46,835 bases of DNA from Patescibacteria group bacterium (GTDB taxonomy: Bacteria; Patescibacteriota; Minisyncoccia; UBA6257; 02-FULL-45-10c). The notes beneath the pieces are model-generated. The model was not told the DNA's origin and searched no databases. It saw nothing but the letters and a program-made list of their open reading frames with translations. Of the stretch, positions 5,318 through 33,572 are shown piece by piece (position 1 is the first letter of the stretch; each line of letters begins with the position of its first letter). Made by a program: the position numbers and the translations under genes. The stretch spans positions 1-46,835 of the forward strand of contig JAGWKK010000001.1 in NCBI GenBank assembly GCA_028865335.1, written 5' to 3'.

Positions 5318-5437
5318 GGGTGACTAGTTCCCGCCTGTGGCGAGGCTCGCCCATAGGGCGGCAGTGGTAGAACGCTGTCCTGATAAGACAGACCTGCCTG
5401 CCGGCAGGCAGGGGTCATAGGTTCGATCCTATTCCAT
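5318..5437 (+). pseudogene. decayed copy of tRNA-Ile(GAT) carrying two insertions
   Basis: gggtgactagtt...cagtggtagaacgctgtcctgataagacaga matches the intact tRNA at 5502, apart from a 32-nt hairpin insert (5330-5362) in the D stem and the 20-nt palindrome (5393-5412) after the anticodon stem. The T arm (ataggttcgatcctat) has a 1-nt shorter loop. The 3' acceptor strand is missing (ccatttt does not pair with gggtgac). Confidence 0.65.
5393..5412. repeat. 20-nt perfect palindrome CCTGCCTGCCGGCAGGCAGG, copy 1
   Basis: Exact self-complementary 20-mer. The corresponding position in intact tRNA-Ile (between 5544 and 5545) lacks it. Confidence 0.9.
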
Positions 5438-5501
5438 TTTTACGACAACGCGTCTAGAGTTAATATCAGGGTAGGGGTCGAGGTTCGATTCCTTTTAAAT
5501 C

Positions 5502-5573
5502 GGGTGACTAGTTCAGTGGTAGAACGCTGTCCTGATAAGACAGAGGTCGCAGGTTCGATTCCTGCGTCACCCA
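5502..5573 (+). tRNA. tRNA-Ile (anticodon GAT)
   Basis: Manual cloverleaf: acceptor gggtgac/gtcaccc, D stem gttc/gaac, anticodon stem ctgtc/gacag with loop ctGATaa, T arm gcagg-ttcgatt-cctgc, discriminator A. CCA is not encoded. Confidence 0.9.
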
Positions 5574-5580
5574 CAAATAT

Positions 5581-5607
5581 AAAAAACCGGACTTGTTCCG
5601 GTTTTTT
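5581..5607. terminator. rho-independent terminator, bidirectional shape
   Basis: aaaaaaccgga-cttgt-tccggtttttt: a 5-bp GC stem flanked by an A6 run and a T6 run. Confidence 0.7.
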
Positions 5608-5610
5608 ATA

Positions 5611-5761
5611 TTTTGCGCAGGAATCGAACCAGCCGCACCCCATATCAGGAAGGAATGGGAAACCGCAGGTGTCCCAGAAGGGGGTCGGGGTGCGGCGTGG
5701 TTCGAGTGAGCGAGCGGGCTATCCAGCCGCGAGTGAAACTTTCATTCCTGCGTCACCCACA
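5611..5761 (+). repeat. structured module bounded by inverted and direct copies of the tRNA-Ile 3' end
   Basis: 5615-5630 gcgcaggaatcgaacc is the reverse complement of the tRNA T arm (15/16 match). 5744-5761 attcctgcgtcacccaca repeats tRNA positions 5558-5575 exactly (18 nt). Inside, cgaaccagccgcacccc pairs with ggggtgcggcgtggttcg. A gggaaacc...gtccc hairpin is homologous to the module at 33436-33572. Confidence 0.7.
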
Positions 5762-5772
5762 GAAATGACGAT

Positions 5773-5801
5773 TTGACTTATAGCATATAATATGCTATAT
5801 T
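5773..5801 (+). promoter_or_regulatory. sigma70-type promoter of the orphan gene 5871..6359
   Basis: TTGACT (5773-5778), 17-nt spacer, TATATT (5796-5801). Confidence 0.6.
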
Positions 5802-5870
5802 CTACTCAGCAGTACATCACGGGCAACCGTGAAATCCTGGATGCCGAAAGGCACATGAAGGGAGGAAGTC

Positions 5871-6359
5871 ATGACGAACGAGAACGAGAAGGTCGTCAAC
5901 GGGCACCGCGTCAAGACGGGCGAGCCCGGCGAGAACGGGACGAAGTCCAACGAGCGGCACATCCTCAGGCAGATCCACGAGAAGCGCAAGCAGGACAAGC
6001 TGCAGCTCGTGAAGGTCAACGAGGCCGCGCGGGCGCTCCGGTCGCCGGCGGACCAGATGGCCGTCTTGGACGACCGGCTCGGCGAGGGCATGGGCGCGAA
6101 CAAGGAGCGGCTGCGTCTCGAGATCGCGAGGGCGGAGCTGAGCCTGAAGGGGCTCGACGGCCGCAAGGGTTCGATGGACCCTTCGTACCTCAAGAGGGAG
6201 ACCGCGTACCTCCAGGACTTCATCCGGCGCCGCAAGGCGGAGCTCGAGAAGGTCAAGCTGGAGAACCGCGGCTACCGCGAGATGCGGAAGTTCGGCCTCC
6301 GTCCGCGCGAGCACGCGTACGAGGAGATGCCGGCGACGGCCCTCGCCCAGGTCGCCTAA
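5871..6359 (+). CDS. hypothetical protein (162 aa, K/E/R-rich), orphan cassette C1
   Basis: Strong SD gaagggaggaagtc before the ATG. It has its own promoter and terminator. The segment is GC-rich, so three other long ORFs overlap it on both strands. This frame was chosen because of the SD and a plausible composition. Confidence 0.55.
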   Translation: MTNENEKVVNGHRVKTGEPGENGTKSNERHILRQIHEKRKQDKLQLVKVNEAARALRSPADQMAVLDDRLGEGMGANKERLRLEIARAELSLKGLDGRKGSMDPSYLKRETAYLQDFIRRRKAELEKVKLENRGYREMRKFGLRPREHAYEEMPATALAQVA

Positions 6360-6375
6360 GCAGTAAGGTTTTCCG

Positions 6376-6410
6376 GCCGGTTTTTCCTTAAAAACCGGCT
6401 TTTGTTTTTT
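6376..6410 (+). terminator. rho-independent terminator
   Basis: gccggttttt-cctt-aaaaaccggc (10-bp stem) followed by ttttgtttttt. Confidence 0.75.
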
Positions 6411-6464
6411 CATGTTGCCGAAAATATCCTTTTTTGATAAGCTGGATACAGGTTTTTCAAGCAT

Positions 6465-6565
6465 GCGCGTTTAGCCCCTGCCTTCGGTAGACAGGCCTGC
6501 CTGCCGGCAGGCAGGTCAGTAGGTAGAGCGGTCGCCGACGGCGACAGGTCGGAGAAAGGTTCTTT
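6465..6565 (+). pseudogene. decayed copy of tRNA-Val(GAC) with 40 nt of palindromic units in the D arm
   Basis: gcgcgtttagc + [6476-6515 insert] + tcagtaggtagagcg parallels gcgcccttagctcagtggtagagcg of the intact tRNA at 6584. An anticodon-like gtcg-ccGACgg-cgac follows. The T arm is degenerate and there is no 3' acceptor strand. Confidence 0.55.
6476..6515. repeat. tandem pair of palindromic units: degenerate unit (6476-6495) then perfect unit (6496-6515), copy 2
   Basis: 6496-6515 is exactly cctgcctgccggcaggcagg. 6476-6495 ccctgccttcggtagacagg resembles the variant at 11431. Confidence 0.85.
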
Positions 6566-6583
6566 TTATAGATAATAATGTTT

Positions 6584-6658
6584 GCGCCCTTAGCTCAGTG
6601 GTAGAGCGTTTCATTGACATTGAAAAGGTCGGAAGTTCGATCCTTCCAGGGCGCACCA
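6584..6658 (+). tRNA. tRNA-Val (anticodon GAC), CCA encoded
   Basis: Acceptor gcgccct/agggcgc, D stem gctc/gagc, anticodon stem tttca/tgaaa with loop ttGACat, T arm ggaag-ttcgatc-cttcc, then ACCA. Confidence 0.9.
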
Positions 6659-8004: not shown

Positions 8005-8025
8005 GGTAACTGGCCTGCGGCCAAA

Positions 8026-8047
8026 TTCCTAATTACTAATAACTAAT
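8026..8047. repeat. degenerate heptamer array ttcctaa-ttactaa-taactaa
   Basis: 7-nt periodicity directly after the 7636..8004 stop. It is related to the tcctaat array at 31054-31090. Confidence 0.5.
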
Positions 8048-8056
8048 GTCGGGTGG

Positions 8057-8075
8057 CTAGTGACGGGGTGAAACC
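8057..8075 (+). repeat. repeat motif ctagtgacggggtgaaacc, copy a
   Basis: Identical 19-mer at 8222-8240. Reverse-complement copy at 20733-20751 with one mismatch. Confidence 0.8.
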
Positions 8076-8200
8076 CCGCACTGAGCCGAGCGCTTCGTTT
8101 TTCACACCGCTTCAGAAAAGCCCCGCGTTAGTGCCAGGCTGTTGCTTCTGCAAATCAAGCTGATAGGAGAAGAAAAACGGCAATGCGGTGCGGCGCTCGA

Positions 8201-8220
8201 CCTGCCTGCCGGCAGGCAGG
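8201..8220. repeat. 20-nt perfect palindrome, copy 3 (24-nt palindrome with flanks, 8199-8222)
   Basis: cggcgctcga|cctgcctgccggcaggcagg|tctagtgac. The paralogous sequence at 20733-20762 (reverse complement cggcgctcga|tctggtgac) lacks exactly these 20 nt. Confidence 0.9.
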
Positions 8221-8221
8221 T

Positions 8222-8240
8222 CTAGTGACGGGGTGAAACC
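8222..8240 (+). repeat. repeat motif ctagtgacggggtgaaacc, copy b
   Basis: See 8057-8075. Confidence 0.8.
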
Positions 8241-11974: not shown

Positions 11975-12035
11975 CAATGCGCAGGTGGCGAAACTGGCAG
12001 ACCTGCCTGCCGGCAGGCAGGCGCACTACCTGAGG
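11975..12035 (+). pseudogene. duplicated 5' half of tRNA-Leu (through the anticodon loop), interrupted by the 20-nt palindrome
   Basis: caatgcgcaggtggcgaaactggcaga[20-nt palindrome]cgcactacc-tgagg, compared with caatgcgcaggtggcgaaactggcagacgcactaccttgagg at 12289-12330. There is no 3' half. Confidence 0.8.
12002..12021. repeat. 20-nt perfect palindrome, copy 4
   Basis: Exact cctgcctgccggcaggcagg. The intact tRNA-Leu lacks it between 12315 and 12316. Confidence 0.9.
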
Positions 12036-12046
12036 CGACAGAATAT

Positions 12047-12328
12047 ATGTATTCTGATTACGTTCTCAAAAGTATCAAGCGCTCTTATTTGTATGTCGGA
12101 ATGACGAATAATATTAATCGTCGTTTTTTTCAACACCAGTATGGCCGCGAAAAAACTACCGCGCCCTATCGACCATTTAAACTGCTCATTGTTGAAAAAT
12201 ATGATACGCGTAAATCGGCACGAGTTCGTGAAAAGTATCTAAAATCAGGAGTTGGCAAAGAGTGGATAAAGAGGTATGATTTTGAGCACAATGCGCAGGT
12301 GGCGAAACTGGCAGACGCACTACCTTGA
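12047..12328 (+). CDS. small stand-alone GIY-YIG (URI-domain) nuclease family protein, 93 aa
   Basis: MYSDYVLKSIKRSYLYVGMTNNINRRFFQHQYG...PFKLLIVEKYDTRKSARVREKYLKSGVG fits the GIY..YIG..R..H..G...E pattern. The start was trimmed to the first ATG after the tRNA fragment. The last 12 codons and the stop lie inside the tRNA-Leu gene. The gene looks AT-richer than its neighbours by eye. Confidence 0.75.
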   Translation: MYSDYVLKSIKRSYLYVGMTNNINRRFFQHQYGREKTTAPYRPFKLLIVEKYDTRKSARVREKYLKSGVGKEWIKRYDFEHNAQVAKLADALP

Positions 12329-12376
12329 GGTGGTAGCGCCCGCAAGGGCTTGGAGGTTCGAATCCTCTCCTGCGCA
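12293..12376 (+). tRNA. tRNA-Leu (anticodon GAG), type II with a long variable arm
   Basis: Acceptor gcgcagg/cctgcgc, anticodon stem ctacc/ggtag with loop ttGAGgt, variable arm cgcccgcaagggct, T arm ggagg-ttcgaat-cctct, discriminator A. Confidence 0.9.
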
Positions 12377-12466
12377 CAAAGTATAAATGACCGAAGTCCG
12401 TCCGGTTGTGCAATTCATGGGCTTTATCAGAAACGAGCAGGAAAAAGGCTGATTGGGTCGCATGTT

Positions 12467-29494: not shown

Positions 29495-30058
29495 ATGGGT
29501 CAGGTCAATGCGTTGAAGGACTTCAAGCGCGGGCAGTTGGATGCCGCGCTGATGAAGATCGGTCAGGAGGCGGGGCTAGGAACCGCTGAAGGAATCAAGG
29601 CTCTTCTCCGCGGTGAGCTCGTCGTGAGGACGCTGGCGAGGTCTTTCAAGCATGACAAGACCTTGGTCGGCTGGAGTCTTCTTATCCCTGGTCCGAAGGT
29701 CGAAGAAGATTTCAGACCCGGCATTGTGGAGTTCCTCGATGGCGAAAATTCCATTTGCGACGAGGAGCTGAGGAAGCGGGCTCGGAATTTGGGAGCGAAT
29801 CTGGGCCAGGCCCACGCCGAGTATCTTCTGGAACGCCAGAACCGGATTCCGTGGGAGTACCGGGGGGATGACCTGGTTTTTCCGGCAACGGTTTGGAATC
29901 CGTCGGGCGGCGACCGTTACACCTCTGATTGCTACAGCCCGATCCTCGTTTGGAACGGTAGTTTTTGGGATTTGGGCTTTAATCGACTCGGGAACGGCTG
30001 GAATCATCACGCCCGCCTGGTCAAGGCTATGCAGCCTTTTCGTCGGAAGGCGAAATAA
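29495..30058 (+). CDS. hypothetical protein (187 aa), orphan cassette C6
   Basis: Its N-terminal segment is similar to 10832..11419, and it shares that gene's leader and terminator style. The C-terminal domain differs (W/G-rich ...VWNPSGGDRY...VWNGSFWDLGFNRLGNGWNHHARLV). Confidence 0.6.
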   Translation: MGQVNALKDFKRGQLDAALMKIGQEAGLGTAEGIKALLRGELVVRTLARSFKHDKTLVGWSLLIPGPKVEEDFRPGIVEFLDGENSICDEELRKRARNLGANLGQAHAEYLLERQNRIPWEYRGDDLVFPATVWNPSGGDRYTSDCYSPILVWNGSFWDLGFNRLGNGWNHHARLVKAMQPFRRKAK

Positions 30059-30065
30059 TCAACTC

Positions 30066-30119
30066 CCGGATCCCCTCAAGGAAGAGAAATCTTTCTTGGA
30101 GGGATCCGGCCCCTTTTTA
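30066..30119 (+). terminator. long-stem rho-independent terminator
   Basis: ccggatcccctcaaggaag-agaaat-cttccttggagggatccgg-type hairpin with 19 paired positions (1 mismatch, some G-U), then cccctttttat. Confidence 0.7.
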
Positions 30120-30190
30120 TTTCATGAGTAAATATTGGAATTATTCGTAAAGATTGAAAGACTCCTTTTCGTATTTGGTATACTCATTAT

Positions 30191-30715
30191 ATGGATGGAA
30201 GAATCATTATAAATATTTCCGGCAAATCAACATCTGGCAAAACGACTTTAATGAGAGAATTGGCGTCAAGGAATATTGGCTGGTATTCACTTTTTCGGGA
30301 TAGGGTGAAAAAACAGTTTTCAGGATACAGCAGGGAACGTGATCGAGAAGTTATAGAGAAGGTGGTATTCGGGTTTTATTGCGTGCTTTGCGAAAAAGGA
30401 CTTCCTATCCTACTTGATGCGTCTATTGATACGAGAGATGCCTATTCAGAGTATTTAAAAGTTGCAGAAAAGAATCATTATAAATTTTTATCGATCAATC
30501 TTGATATTCCTCAAGGCGTGGCGCTTAAAAGGTTTCGCGAAAGAGTGAGGAGGGCAAAGGATCAAGGTGATAAGATTTCAGTAACGGACGAAGACACTTT
30601 TTTAAGGAATCAAAATAAAGAGCACTTCTATCCCTCTGACGCGCTTAGCTTTGACACATCCAGGTTAACTGTAGAAGAAATTGCCAGTGATATTATGGAT
30701 AAGATTGTTTTATAG
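30191..30715 (+). CDS. P-loop NTPase/kinase (AAA_33 / zeta-toxin-like fold), 174 aa
   Basis: Walker A GKSTSGKTT and Walker B-like ILLDAS. Conspicuously AT-rich compared with its neighbours, by eye. TATACT at 30179-84 lies 6 nt before the ATG. Confidence 0.6.
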   Translation: MDGRIIINISGKSTSGKTTLMRELASRNIGWYSLFRDRVKKQFSGYSRERDREVIEKVVFGFYCVLCEKGLPILLDASIDTRDAYSEYLKVAEKNHYKFLSINLDIPQGVALKRFRERVRRAKDQGDKISVTDEDTFLRNQNKEHFYPSDALSFDTSRLTVEEIASDIMDKIVL

Positions 30716-30770
30716 ACAAGCGGTTATTTTGCCCCTTTTTTTATATTCAGATTCGCTTTATAATTTGCAT

Positions 30771-31052
30771 ATGCTTTCAAAGAAAGAACTTGAACACCTC
30801 GCGGAACTTGCGCGCATTGAACTGAAGGAAGGGGAAGAGGAAAAGCTTGAGAAAGACCTCGGGGCCATTTTGGATTACTTCAAGGAACTGCAGGCGGTGG
30901 ATACGGAGAAGGTTGCGCCCATGACCGGCGGTACGCAGCTGATGAACGCGCTGCGTGAAGATGTGACGGGATCGACCGATGATACCGGCAAAGGCGCCGC
31001 GGGTTTTCCGGACAAACAGGACGGCTACCTGAAAGTACCTCCTGTCTTCTAA
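30771..31052 (+). CDS. gatC: Asp/Glu-tRNA amidotransferase subunit C
   Basis: 93 aa from ATG 30771: MLSKKELEHLAELARIELKEGEEEKLEKDLGAILDYFKELQAVDT. TATAAT at 30759-64 lies 6 nt before the ATG. ORF 30681 would overlap the previous gene. Confidence 0.85.
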   Translation: MLSKKELEHLAELARIELKEGEEEKLEKDLGAILDYFKELQAVDTEKVAPMTGGTQLMNALREDVTGSTDDTGKGAAGFPDKQDGYLKVPPVF

Positions 31053-31053
31053 T

Positions 31054-31090
31054 TTCCAATTCCTAATTCCTAATTCCTAATTCCTAATTC
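31054..31090. repeat. heptamer tandem array (tcctaat x4 perfect, with degenerate flanking units)
   Basis: ttccaat tcctaat tcctaat tcctaat tcctaat tcacac fills the whole gatC-gatA spacer and gives TAA in all three frames. Confidence 0.9.
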
Positions 31091-31096
31091 ACACCC

Positions 31097-32560
31097 ATGT
31101 CATCTCCATTACACTTTCTCACGCTGAAGCGTTTCCACGAAGGACTTCTGAACAAGGAATTCTCCGCGCTCGAAATGGCGCAGGAGCATTTCACATACAT
31201 CGAATCCCGGGATCCGGAGATCGGGGCGTATCTGGCACTCCATCGCGATGAGGCGATGCGGCAGGCGGAGGCGGCCGATCTTGCGGTTGCGCAGGATAAG
31301 GAGATGAGCGCATTGGCCGGAGCTCCGCTCGCGATCAAGGACAACATCCTGATCGAGGGGACGCGGACGACATCAGCCGCGCAGATTCTCAAGGACTATA
31401 TCGCGAACTATGACGCATCGGTGATCACGAAGCTGAAAAAAGCAGGCGCGGTGTTTCTGGGGAAGACGAACATGGACGAATTCGCGATGGGTTCTTCCAC
31501 CGAGAATTCTTCGTTCCAGAAAACGAAAAACCCGCATAGCACTGCGCATGTCCCCGGAGGTTCCTCCGGCGGTTCAGCTGCGGCGGTCGCGGCGCATATG
31601 GCGGTCGCGTCATTGGGGTCCGATACCGGCGGTTCCATCCGCCAGCCGGCGGCATTCTGCGGCGTCGTGGGCTTGAAGCCGACGTACGGTTCGGTATCGC
31701 GTTCAGGCCTGATGGCGATGGCGTCCAGTTTGGATCAGATCGGTCCGTTCGCGAAAACCGTCGAGGATGCGGCGATTCTGTACAATGAAATCAAAGGATA
31801 CGATCCCTTGGACGCGACCAGCGATCCGCGGGCGGATGCTGATGTATCAAAAGCATTGCTCAATCCGACATTGGGCCAGATCAAGAAATTACGCGTCGGC
31901 ATTCCGGAGGAATATTTCATCGACGGCCTTGATCCGCGCGTCCGGACGAAAGTGGAAGAGGCGATCGGGGTTCTGAAGAGTCTCGGCGTCGAGGTGAAAC
32001 CGGTAAGCCTGCCGCACACCAAGTACGCGCTCTCCTGCTATTACATCGTCATGCCGGCGGAAGTCAGCTCGAACCTGGAACGGTTCGACGGAATCCGATA
32101 TGGGACGCGTCATCCCGCGGACACTTTGCTGGAACTCTATAAGAAAGACCGCGAATCAGGATTCGGTCCTGAAACGAAACGCCGCATCCTGCTCGGCACC
32201 TTCGTGCTCTCGTCCGGCTACTATGATGCGTATTACGCGAAGGCGCAGAAGGTGCGTCGGCTGATCGCGCAGGATTTCGATGAAGCGTTCAAACAGGTTG
32301 ATGTATTGGTGACGCCGGTGACTCCGACGCCCGCATTCAGGATCGGGGAGAAGATGAGCGATCCGCTTTCCATGTATCTTTCGGATATCTTCACGATTCC
32401 GGTGAATCTTGCCGGTCTGCCGGCGGTGTCCATTCCGGCGAAAGGATTCGTGGACGCGGACGGCGCGTCATTGCCGGTCGGATTCCAACTGATCGGCCGG
32501 AGGTGGGGCGAGGCGGATATTCTGGGACTCGGACAATATTACGAAAAGGCGGTACAATAG
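31097..32560 (+). CDS. gatA: Asp/Glu-tRNA amidotransferase subunit A
   Basis: 487 aa. Amidase signature GGSSGGSAAAVAA...GSDTGGSIRQPA. Confidence 0.95.
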   Translation: MSSPLHFLTLKRFHEGLLNKEFSALEMAQEHFTYIESRDPEIGAYLALHRDEAMRQAEAADLAVAQDKEMSALAGAPLAIKDNILIEGTRTTSAAQILKDYIANYDASVITKLKKAGAVFLGKTNMDEFAMGSSTENSSFQKTKNPHSTAHVPGGSSGGSAAAVAAHMAVASLGSDTGGSIRQPAAFCGVVGLKPTYGSVSRSGLMAMASSLDQIGPFAKTVEDAAILYNEIKGYDPLDATSDPRADADVSKALLNPTLGQIKKLRVGIPEEYFIDGLDPRVRTKVEEAIGVLKSLGVEVKPVSLPHTKYALSCYYIVMPAEVSSNLERFDGIRYGTRHPADTLLELYKKDRESGFGPETKRRILLGTFVLSSGYYDAYYAKAQKVRRLIAQDFDEAFKQVDVLVTPVTPTPAFRIGEKMSDPLSMYLSDIFTIPVNLAGLPAVSIPAKGFVDADGASLPVGFQLIGRRWGEADILGLGQYYEKAVQ

Positions 32561-33321: not shown

Positions 33322-33396
33322 GCGGTAGTAGCTTAGCTGGCCTAAAGCGCCTCCCTGTCACGGAGGAGACCGTGGGTTCAAATCCCATCTACCGCG
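33322..33396 (+). tRNA. tRNA-Asp (anticodon GTC)
   Basis: Acceptor gcggtag/ctaccgc, anticodon stem cctcc/ggagg with loop ctGTCac, T arm gtggg-ttcaaat-cccat, discriminator G. Confidence 0.9.
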
Positions 33397-33397
33397 C

Positions 33398-33435: not shown

Positions 33436-33572
33436 TGTCCGCGATGGGATTTGAACAGAAGGGGAAGGGGTCGGGAAACGGGAGTTTCCCGTGTCGGAAG
33501 GATTGGGAAAACCGAGCCTGCCTACCGACAGGCAGGGGTTTCCCAGTGTTCTTACTCCCATCTACCGCGCAC
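33436..33572 (+). repeat. structured module bounded by inverted and direct copies of the tRNA-Asp 3' end
   Basis: 33441-33456 gcgatgggatttgaac contains the reverse complement of 14 nt of the T arm. 33556-33571 tcccatctaccgcgca repeats tRNA positions 33383-33398 exactly (16 nt). The interior has gggaaac-ggga-gtttccc and gggaaaacc...ggtttccc hairpins homologous to 5611-5761. The second hairpin's loop carries a palindromic unit. Confidence 0.7.
33517..33536. repeat. palindromic unit variant cctgcctaccgacaggcagg (18/20 match to the perfect unit)
   Basis: Located in the loop between gggaaaaccgag and ggtttccc. Confidence 0.7.

Follow-up and report, generated by a model that had tools for sequence, protein, structure and literature searches.

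A structured, gene-less element behind tRNA and other conserved genes of Patescibacteria, with a probably rearranged copy at tRNA-Ile

Why should the end of a tRNA gene stand a second time, letter for letter, less than 200 nt behind the gene, with an inverted copy of the T arm and a folded, G-rich stretch in between? The question is raised by the tRNA-Ile locus in a 46,835-nt stretch of DNA (the window, meaning the whole stretch that was analysed) from a Patescibacteria group bacterium (GenBank assembly GCA_028865335.1, contig JAGWKK010000001.1). The original prediction, made from the letters alone, had compared the repeat with the attL/attR scars of site-specific integration and had pointed to a similar module behind tRNA-Asp. 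We describe here a widespread, apparently undescribed family of structured elements of about 140-200 nt that hold no open reading frame (ORF) and lie behind tRNA and other conserved genes of Patescibacteria; our confidence in the family and its anatomy is high. Taken as a whole, the explanation that we favour, at a probability of roughly 0.5, is that of a family specific to Patescibacteria, made up of non-autonomous elements that duplicate at the level of DNA and spread within genomes, and between them by homologous recombination, the module at tRNA-Ile being a rearranged copy.

The modules behind tRNA-Ile and tRNA-Asp

In canonical copies the 5' to 3' order is copy A (the end of the target gene), a spacer that is usually a hairpin, an inverted copy of the gene end (X'), a first joiner (J1), a first hairpin (hpA), a second joiner (J2), a second hairpin (hpB), an optional third hairpin (hpC) and copy B (the repeated gene end). 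The features of the two modules in the window are listed below; CM R1 is a covariance model of J1-hpA-J2-hpB, described in the next section.

5502-5574, + strand: intact tRNA-Ile(GAT) (ARAGORN; Rfam tRNA, 74.3 bits)
5558-5575, + strand: copy A of the direct repeat, the last 18 nt of tRNA-Ile
5575-5613, no strand assigned: spacer, a perfect 17-bp A/T-flanked palindrome with arms 5575-5591 and 5597-5613 (inverted repeat I2)
5615-5633, + strand: X', inverted copy of the tRNA-Ile T loop and T-stem 3' strand (inverted repeat I1)
5625-5641, + strand: 5' arm of a 17-bp bulged stem, ending ...CACCCC (folds; inverted repeat)
5642-5655, + strand: J2-like joiner ATATCAGGAAGGAA, canonical form GUGKMGGAAGGAU (local alignments with the Asp module and canonical copies of other contigs)
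5656-5676, + strand: hairpin hpB, UGGGAAACC-GCAG-GUGUCCCA (alignment to the copy L132)
5678-5686, + strand: J1 motif AAGGGGGUC (match to GGGGTCGGG)
5687-5704, + strand: 3' arm of the 17-bp stem (GGGGUGCGGC...), then T-loop-like GGUUCGAG (inverted repeat I8; folds)
5705-5743, + strand: hpC-like 3' region (GAGCGAGCGGGCUAUCCAGCCGCGAGUGA...), a small hairpin in the fold, which by eye only resembles the GAGCG..hairpin..GAGC.GUGAGAU 3' regions of canonical copies
5744-5761, + strand: copy B, exact direct repeat of the tRNA-Ile 3' end, 18/18 (direct repeat D3, equal to 5558-5575)
33322-33397, + strand: tRNA-Asp(GTC), target of the canonical sister module (ARAGORN, Rfam)
33439-33572, + strand: Asp module, the canonical sister (CM R1, 44.2 bits, E 3.9e-9)
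33439-33456: X' of the Asp module
33457-33472: J1 of the Asp module
33473-33490: hpA of the Asp module
33491-33503: J2 of the Asp module
33504-33548: hpB of the Asp module
33557-33572: copy B of the Asp module, a 16-nt repeat

The inverted T-arm copy, the 17-bp stem, the G-rich core and the exact 18-nt repeat named in the original prediction are all present at tRNA-Ile with small shifts of coordinates; the inverted copy, placed there at 5615-5630, pairs over 18 nt (5549-5566 with 5616-5633, 94% complementary). The terminator hairpin that it had seen after the tRNA is the perfect palindrome of the spacer, which looks like a bidirectional terminator and forms the centre of a long hairpin joining the tRNA-Ile 3' end and X' (tRNA end, spacer and X' fold as one hairpin, z = -8.3). 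The minimum free energy fold of the module, which includes the 5625-5641/5687-5704 stem, has -70.5 kcal/mol (z = -4.96), a value reached by none of 200 shuffles. Measured from the tRNA end to the end of copy B the module is 187 nt long, within the family range of 142-201 nt. No plausible gene lies between the repeats, since the sole ORF across them (5504-5776, 90 aa) starts inside tRNA-Ile, and there is no integrase nearby, as had been stated.

The Asp module has the same layout and is 175 nt long from tRNA end to repeat end; its hpB contains an inserted 20-nt palindrome (33517-33536). The sequence blocks said to be common to the two modules are real: within the 46.8 kb, GGAAGGAWTGGGAAAMC and GGGGTCGGG each occur exactly twice, once per module, the latter at 5681 and 33467. 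This 13-mer arises in 0.6% of shuffles of the Ile core and is also found in a module behind tRNA-Val in the related contig L001. GGAAGGAWUGGGAAA and GGGGUCGGG are motifs of the Ile copy. Local alignment of the two cores gives a best score of 27, where dinucleotide shuffles give 15.9 +/- 2.5 and none of 1000 reaches 27. An alignment of 5611-5761 with the Asp module, the proposed check, thus rises above shuffles; it captures only one block, and the linear alignment (A1) is uninformative, because the two shared blocks come in reversed order in the two modules.

What has happened to the order can be seen block by block. The Ile module reads X', stem 5' arm (...CACCCC), J2, hpB, a G, J1 and stem 3' arm (GGGG...), so that J1 lies 3' of hpB, where canonical copies have it 5' of hpA. 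The stem 5' arm (5625-5641) aligns with GTTTCCC and J2 of the Asp module and would take the place of the hpA 3' strand. J2 and hpB together are identical at 27/31 positions to a canonical copy from a foreign contig (L132; score 39, shuffles 16 +/- 3.2, 0/500 reaching it), and hpB keeps the family apex AACCG..GG and a recurrent A.G mismatch. On this block-wise comparison only, the Ile core may be a circularly permuted form of the canonical core, with hpA opened up, its stem lengthened to 17 bp, and the closing stem gone. X' 5' of the core, copy B 3' of it, the length, the J2-hpB block and the J1 motif are all as in the family; a J1-hpA-J2-hpB series in canonical order, detectable by covariance model, is absent. 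We read the Ile module as a rearranged, possibly decaying member.

Some results speak against this assignment. On the Ile module CM R1 gives 4.7 bits (E 9.4, 5675-5706), and the Asp module is its sole find in the window. A profile hidden Markov model (HMM; nhmmer) scores the Ile core at 1.6 bits in native and 3.7 bits in rotated order, where shuffles reach 5.5; because the rotated score is not significant, it is the block-wise comparison that carries the permuted reading, and blocks and architecture that carry membership. The permuted arrangement was seen once, at tRNA-Ile, in a comparison set chosen for an intact hpA, so that permuted copies would have been missed. Could the module then be a chance resemblance, or debris of a local tRNA duplication, without kinship to the family? 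Degenerate tRNA-Ile fragments do lie upstream of tRNA-Ile as well, and neither the covariance model nor the HMM recognises the module. Set against the block similarity far above shuffles, the typical architecture and size, and the conserved hpB apex and mismatch, we hold this to be extremely improbable.

A family of elements with a conserved core

A 24-nt core motif common to the Asp and L001 modules served as an exact-match query in a metagenome scan and was found in at least 120 contigs, largely labelled groundwater or sediment. Among the matches listed, 74 of 127 core hits have a tRNA gene on the same strand at most 400 nt upstream, covering 36 anticodon types, and all tRNA-linked copies lie on the tRNA strand. 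Two modules stand behind tmRNA genes (L044 927-1310 and L090 953-1270). In the non-redundant tRNA-linked copies (n = 49) the direct repeat, which starts at the T-loop 3' edge, comprises the last 18 nt of the tRNA at the median (10th-90th percentile 14-20), and the median distance from tRNA end to repeat end is 171 nt (142-201). CM R1 finds 102 copies in the 100 loci searched (L001-L100), one of them a divergent copy after tRNA-Met in a Saccharibacteria metagenome-assembled genome (MAG; L004).

Relatives differ in the possession of modules. L001 (Patescibacteria REEB48) is syntenic with the window; its tRNA-Ile is identical in sequence and has no module, with tRNA-Val 43 nt on. A module does follow this tRNA-Val; it comprises a T-loop copy in inverted orientation, 17 nt repeated from the tRNA-Val 3' end and a core (GGGAAGGGGGTCGGGGAAACGGGAGTTTCCCC) almost identical to that of the Asp module in the window. 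Since modules are present or absent at orthologous tRNA genes of the two, they are insertions that differ between relatives. As weak evidence, the CAG after copy B at tRNA-Ile equals the flank of tRNA-Ile in L001. That the modules form a family of elements and not a one-off scar, as had been proposed, is borne out by the number of contigs, the anticodon types and this presence and absence; the envisaged covariance model from tRNA-linked copies recovers the Asp module and the 102 copies and leaves the Ile module undetected.

With the covariance models of Rfam 15, only tRNA reaches its gathering score on the two modules and nothing relevant appears at E <= 10. The element has no match in viral contigs, annotated phages or plasmids, and a literature search that included exact motif strings returned nothing relevant, so that as far as these searches show it is undescribed. 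ORFs within about 3 kb of 125 cores, clustered and named from their sequences rather than by profile search, yield only housekeeping families and, in 4 loci, a small GIY-YIG protein; since no family recurs, the element has no linked gene.

The core has a well-defined anatomy. The consensus is GGGAAGGGGUC for J1, GGG(G)AAAC-GGGA-GUUUCCC(C) for hpA and GUGGMGGAA... for J2, and hpB has a variable stem under a conserved apex, AACCG(N)NGGGUU. A variable or optional hpC follows, then ..CGACG or a T-loop-like GUUCGAU or GUGAGAU, then copy B. When 46 cores aligned with MAFFT were folded with RNAalifold (A2), differences in hpB loop length put the alignment out of register and the resulting structure was spurious; CM R1 was therefore built with a hand-specified structure on a length-homogeneous set (A4). 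In the R1 alignment 96.9% of cells are paired, against 82% in shuffles, and none of 500 shuffles reaches the observed values. All 8 pairs of hpB have compensatory changes, on both sides, and slid controls collapse. The hairpin hpA is invariant in the motif-selected set by construction; in divergent copies it shows the compensatory variants GGGAAAAC/GTTTTCCC and GGGGAACCG/CGGTTCCCC, and its loop tolerates hairpin insertions. The covariation in hpB and the compensatory variants of hpA thus mark the core as a conserved fold of a single strand. A G-quadruplex in J1/hpA, which the motif would fit, was rejected on the grounds that divergent copies lose the fourth G tract and keep the hairpin. The motif GCGAAGC, which as DNA forms a very stable mini-hairpin, recurs in hpC.

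A 'type 2' form of the core is found in intergenic regions (L031, L052, L069, L103, L109, L111, L113). A short stem-hairpin-stem, often ..CCGCAGAAU..GAAUGCGG.., precedes the core, and a conserved 3' domain (GGGGATAGGACGAGCGGATTTT) and a terminator-like hairpin follow it. These copies may be a free-standing or ancestral form.

Origin of the arms and mode of spread

Each target has arms of its own, copied from the gene end found there. Compared with copy B, the context of copy A is the better match to the reverse complement of X' in 54 of 63 loci (8 ties, 1 worse), which shows, by comparison of the letters, that X' copies the functional gene copy and not copy B. The distal part of copy B equals copy A, and the 4-8 nt beside the core are diverged or element-like (e.g., GATTCC vs GAATCC). 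The tRNA 3' end, spacer and X' form a single unbranched hairpin in 41 of the 49 tRNA-linked copies, with about 75% of bases paired and a median of 17 bp between tRNA end and X'. X' is therefore the far arm of a long quasi-palindrome that is centred on the terminator loop and ends at the T loop, the core of which, TTCGAA, is itself palindromic.

Protein genes are targets too, always with the gene body on the X' side and at highly conserved segments. The sense 3' end is used in the genes for L7/L12 (L020), ribonucleotide reductase (RNR; L047) and pyrophosphatase (PPase; L110), and the antisense 5' end in that for DnaK (L013) and in L037, L065 and L082. Duplications range from about 11 to 95 nt; one insertion (L120) has a perfect 69-nt duplication, spacer included. 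At the PPase locus copies A and B share 36 identical nt and then differ in 14 codons, 13 of them synonymously. Because the differences are mostly synonymous, the copies are two alleles that evolved under selection in different lineages, which is evidence that this cassette probably entered by homologous recombination within the conserved stretch. Spread within genomes is seen in two contigs that have copies at different tRNAs with variable parts 0.86 and 0.91 identical, where identity between contigs has a median of 0.61 and a 99th percentile of 0.75; tandem arrays occur in L028, L059 and L102. Multiple copies, polymorphic insertion, spread within genomes to new targets and arms templated by the target are thus shown, and we have moderate confidence in a mobile element that acts at the level of DNA.

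The route of spread that we propose in detail is held with low confidence. The element would land just outside the ends of highly conserved genes, so that the gene stays intact. A new copy would arise during replication or repair: at the terminator hairpin the nascent strand would turn back on itself and be extended along the gene end in reverse, up to the T loop. There, the palindromic TTCGAA could provide the microhomology for a switch to an existing element, the core of which would be copied before a switch back and a second copying of the gene end give rise to copy B. Later, the cassette may be transferred between genomes by homologous recombination with the conserved gene end as an arm. 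The core would be kept by selection as a folded single strand of DNA or RNA, and its fold may favour stalling and switching, serve as the binding site of a factor acting in trans, or function as RNA. One tentative and rather doubtful generalization is a new kind of mobile element that carries no gene and in effect retargets itself: a folded core of about 70-130 nt, copied by host replication and repair beside any conserved gene end, with arms (inverted X' and direct copy B) templated afresh at each target. As RNA, it would amount to a minimal ribozyme that resembles an intron and has a guide sequence.

Several observations sit uneasily with a DNA-level element spread in this way. The template-switch steps are what we infer from the layout; a purely passive mechanism leaves the strong conservation of the core unexplained, and the T-loop microhomology on which the model draws is missing at protein-gene targets. 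No empty and filled pair within one species, no intermediate and no junction reads were seen, and of the 11 contigs with the identical PPase of L110 the 8 places displayed are all filled. Some copies (type 2) have no obvious copy B. Pairs of G.U outnumber A.C by 20:10 in hpA and hpB and stand at 22:23 in P1, which does not settle the strand or the choice of RNA or DNA, and the GNRA-like loops on the + strand and the co-orientation with tRNAs would also fit a function as RNA.

It is on this last ground that a structured RNA, useful to the host or selfish, has to be weighed: a small ribozyme, a processing or stability module or something intron-like, co-transcribed with the tRNA and processed by tRNA-maturation enzymes, with X' as an internal guide base-paired to the gene end. 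The strong covariation in hpB and the compensatory changes in hpA suit it, as do GNRA-type loops (GGGA, GAGA, GCAA) on the + strand only, the tRNA-strand orientation of all tRNA-linked copies among the matches listed and the 20 to 10 excess of G.U over A.C. The order of X' and core also recalls that of group I introns, in which a guide precedes the catalytic core. Yet a hairpin with a T-run between tRNA and X', which should stop transcription, is present in 30 of the 49 copies, several protein-gene copies are antisense at the gene 5' end, and P1 has no G.U bias. The module is not essential, because its presence varies between relatives, and no Rfam family, known small ribozymes and group I introns included, matches at E <= 10. 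We consider a structured RNA unlikely. A scaffold with a guide, in RNA or DNA, that serves an effector encoded elsewhere (an RNA-guided nuclease, a recombinase or a transposase, e.g., a small stand-alone GIY-YIG protein) would account for arms that match the target beside a conserved scaffold, with X' or copy B as the guide, and would make retargeting within a genome easy; the window and L096 contain small GIY-YIG genes beside comparable duplications of tRNA 5' ends, and such proteins are common in these genomes. It is distinctly unlikely, given that no protein family recurs near the modules (GIY-YIG in 4 loci only), that copy B is up to about 95 nt long, unlike a guide, that an intact target (copy A) beside the element would mean self-targeting, and that X' is more simply part of the terminator palindrome.

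Remnants of integrase-mediated islands that lost their cargo were the framing of the original prediction. It holds in so far as the repeat begins on the T-loop 3' side and extends to the end of the tRNA, a feature of many tRNA-integrating elements, and the two PPase alleles are what one would expect of an element that supplies a substitute gene end. As an account of the modules in general it is contradicted, and in our view very unlikely: one core stands at 36 tRNA types, tmRNA and unrelated protein genes; no integrase or ORF lies inside and none recurs nearby; the size is held tightly to 142-201 nt; the inverted copy belongs to one long palindrome around the terminator hairpin; and collections of phages, viruses and plasmids hold no match. 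What remains preferred is thus the non-autonomous DNA-level element.

Other identities were tried and rejected. A miniature inverted-repeat transposable element (MITE) should have conserved terminal inverted repeats and a duplication of fixed length, and here the arms are the local gene end and the duplication varies (~11-95 nt). A group I intron is excluded by the lack of an Intron_gpI match at E <= 10 in either module and by the complete upstream tRNA; the same search does detect a group I intron in L078. In that contig (5936-6238) about 100 nt separate the intron from a module downstream of it, and the intron may lie inside an interrupted tRNA gene. Known small self-cleaving ribozymes and the other Rfam 15 families gave no relevant match at E <= 10. 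An IS200/IS605-type miniature or an omega-RNA (TnpB/IscB) would call for an associated tnpA, tnpB or iscB, whereas no ORF family recurs within about 3 kb, and does not go with the long duplications. A retron or diversity-generating retroelement was dropped because no ORF such as a reverse transcriptase recurs near the cores and the PPase changes are synonymous and not adenine-specific; an integron attC, because non-tRNA copies lack AAC/GTT core sites; and the homing CRISPR RNA of a CRISPR-associated transposon, because no gene recurs near the cores.

Surroundings of the modules and known systems

The window is a piece of the chromosome of a member of the Patescibacteria (candidate phyla radiation, or CPR, bacteria) and not of a phage. 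It encodes TopA (topoisomerase I), DprA and an extracytoplasmic function (ECF) sigma factor, and its DprA matches Patescibacteria/Saccharibacteria MAGs at 45-69% identity. A phage origin is ruled out by these genes, the closest relatives being Patescibacteria genomes; in phage searches with the window, the tRNAs were the only matches.

Around tRNA-Ile, a degenerate copy of this tRNA lies upstream (5318-5436 and 5464-5500), with exact blocks of 13 and 31 nt, interrupted by a 31-nt hairpin and a 20-nt palindrome, and followed by a fragment, TATCAGGGTAGGGGTCGAGGTTCGATTCC, similar to the interior of the Ile module. Downstream (5762-6583), the window has about 1 kb more than L001, where the gap between tRNA-Ile and tRNA-Val is 43 nt; the extra DNA includes a palindromic promoter-like site (5779-5799) and an ORF of 162 aa rich in Lys, Arg and Glu and without Pfam match (5871-6359). 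At 6465-6560, just upstream of the real tRNA-Val (6584-6658), is a degenerate tRNA-Val 5' part with palindrome insertions, its anticodon arm replaced by GTCGCCGACGGCGAC.

The window contains 5 copies of the 20-nt palindrome, the GC-rich CCTGCCTGCCGGCAGGCAGG (5393-5412, 6496-6515, 8201-8220, 12002-12021 and 33517-33536), against 0 expected. It is inserted into pseudo-tRNA fragments and the hpB of the Asp module and is also found inside modules of L039, L078, L108/L121 and L111, and metagenome contigs without relation to the window have variants of it; to all appearance it is an insertion element in its own right, a miniature hairpin. At 11975-12035, a tRNA-Leu 5' fragment, 28 nt of it exact, is followed by the palindrome. 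Next to it, a GIY-YIG ORF of 93 aa (12047-12328; Pfam E 4.5e-14) reads into an intact tRNA-Leu (12293-12377). The same pattern recurs at tRNA-Ala in L096 (~1700-2440), with three copies of GGGCCCTTAG, and both loci have the appearance of cassettes like those of homing endonucleases, in which the 5' end of the tRNA is duplicated. The 19-nt CTAGTGACGGGGTGAAACC occurs twice (8058-8076 and 8222-8240) within a non-coding region of 400 nt; the stretch between the copies ends in the palindrome, Rfam finds nothing there, and the region 8058-8240 may be another interrupted RNA gene. The kilobase 30001-31100 is low in GC (0.425 vs ~0.56), with CCTAATT tandem repeats at its end (31048-31088), to which an AT-rich repeat at 8021-8047 is related.

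If our reading is correct, Patescibacteria carry an abundant, conserved and gene-less structured element that is apparently uncatalogued. It would then represent either selfish DNA of a new type or a small functional RNA not described before. It is found at the ends of the genes for tRNA, tmRNA and core proteins, where it alters tRNA loci and gives rise to pseudo gene ends, a possible source of annotation errors. No dedicated enzyme seems to be needed for its retargeting, and it would offer a handle on recombination and gene flow in uncultivable organisms. Arms templated by the target beside a constant scaffold could be of interest for engineering if a trans-acting factor exists.

Parts of the design are known from other systems. 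Like tRNA-integrating islands and the att-flanked, non-autonomous elements derived from them, such as cis-mobilizable elements (CIMEs), the element has a repeat of the tRNA 3' end from the T loop, leaves the gene intact through a replacement end and varies in presence, but it has no integrase, measures about 170 nt, puts one core at dozens of unrelated targets, adds an inverted copy of the target and also uses the 5' ends of protein genes. With MITEs, repetitive extragenic palindromic (REP) sequences and REPINs, Correia elements, Rickettsia palindromic elements (RPE) and BOX elements it shares being short, ORF-free, multicopy, hairpin-rich and non-autonomous; its arms, however, are copied from the local target and are not fixed terminal inverted repeats, its duplication is variable (14-95 nt), its core covaries and it strongly prefers the ends of conserved genes. 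Group I and II introns likewise place a segment complementary to the target (the internal guide sequence, IGS, or the exon- and intron-binding sites, EBS/IBS) 5' of a conserved fold, near tRNA genes, and spread in a homology-dependent manner. The element differs in having no Rfam intron match, a core that is far too small, a position outside the functional gene copy, antisense copies and no need for splicing. The direct-inverted-direct layout, the hairpin centre and the microhomology joints are those of quasi-palindrome or fold-back template switches (inverted duplication-triplication); these are sporadic mutations, whereas the element has the same conserved cargo each time and is kept across lineages. 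Closest to hand are the GIY-YIG cassettes at tRNA genes (12047-12328 in the window, and L096), which also lie beside a tRNA gene with a duplicated gene end and an intact copy: they consist of a protein gene with a 5' end duplication, and the module of a 3' end duplication around a conserved fold without an ORF.

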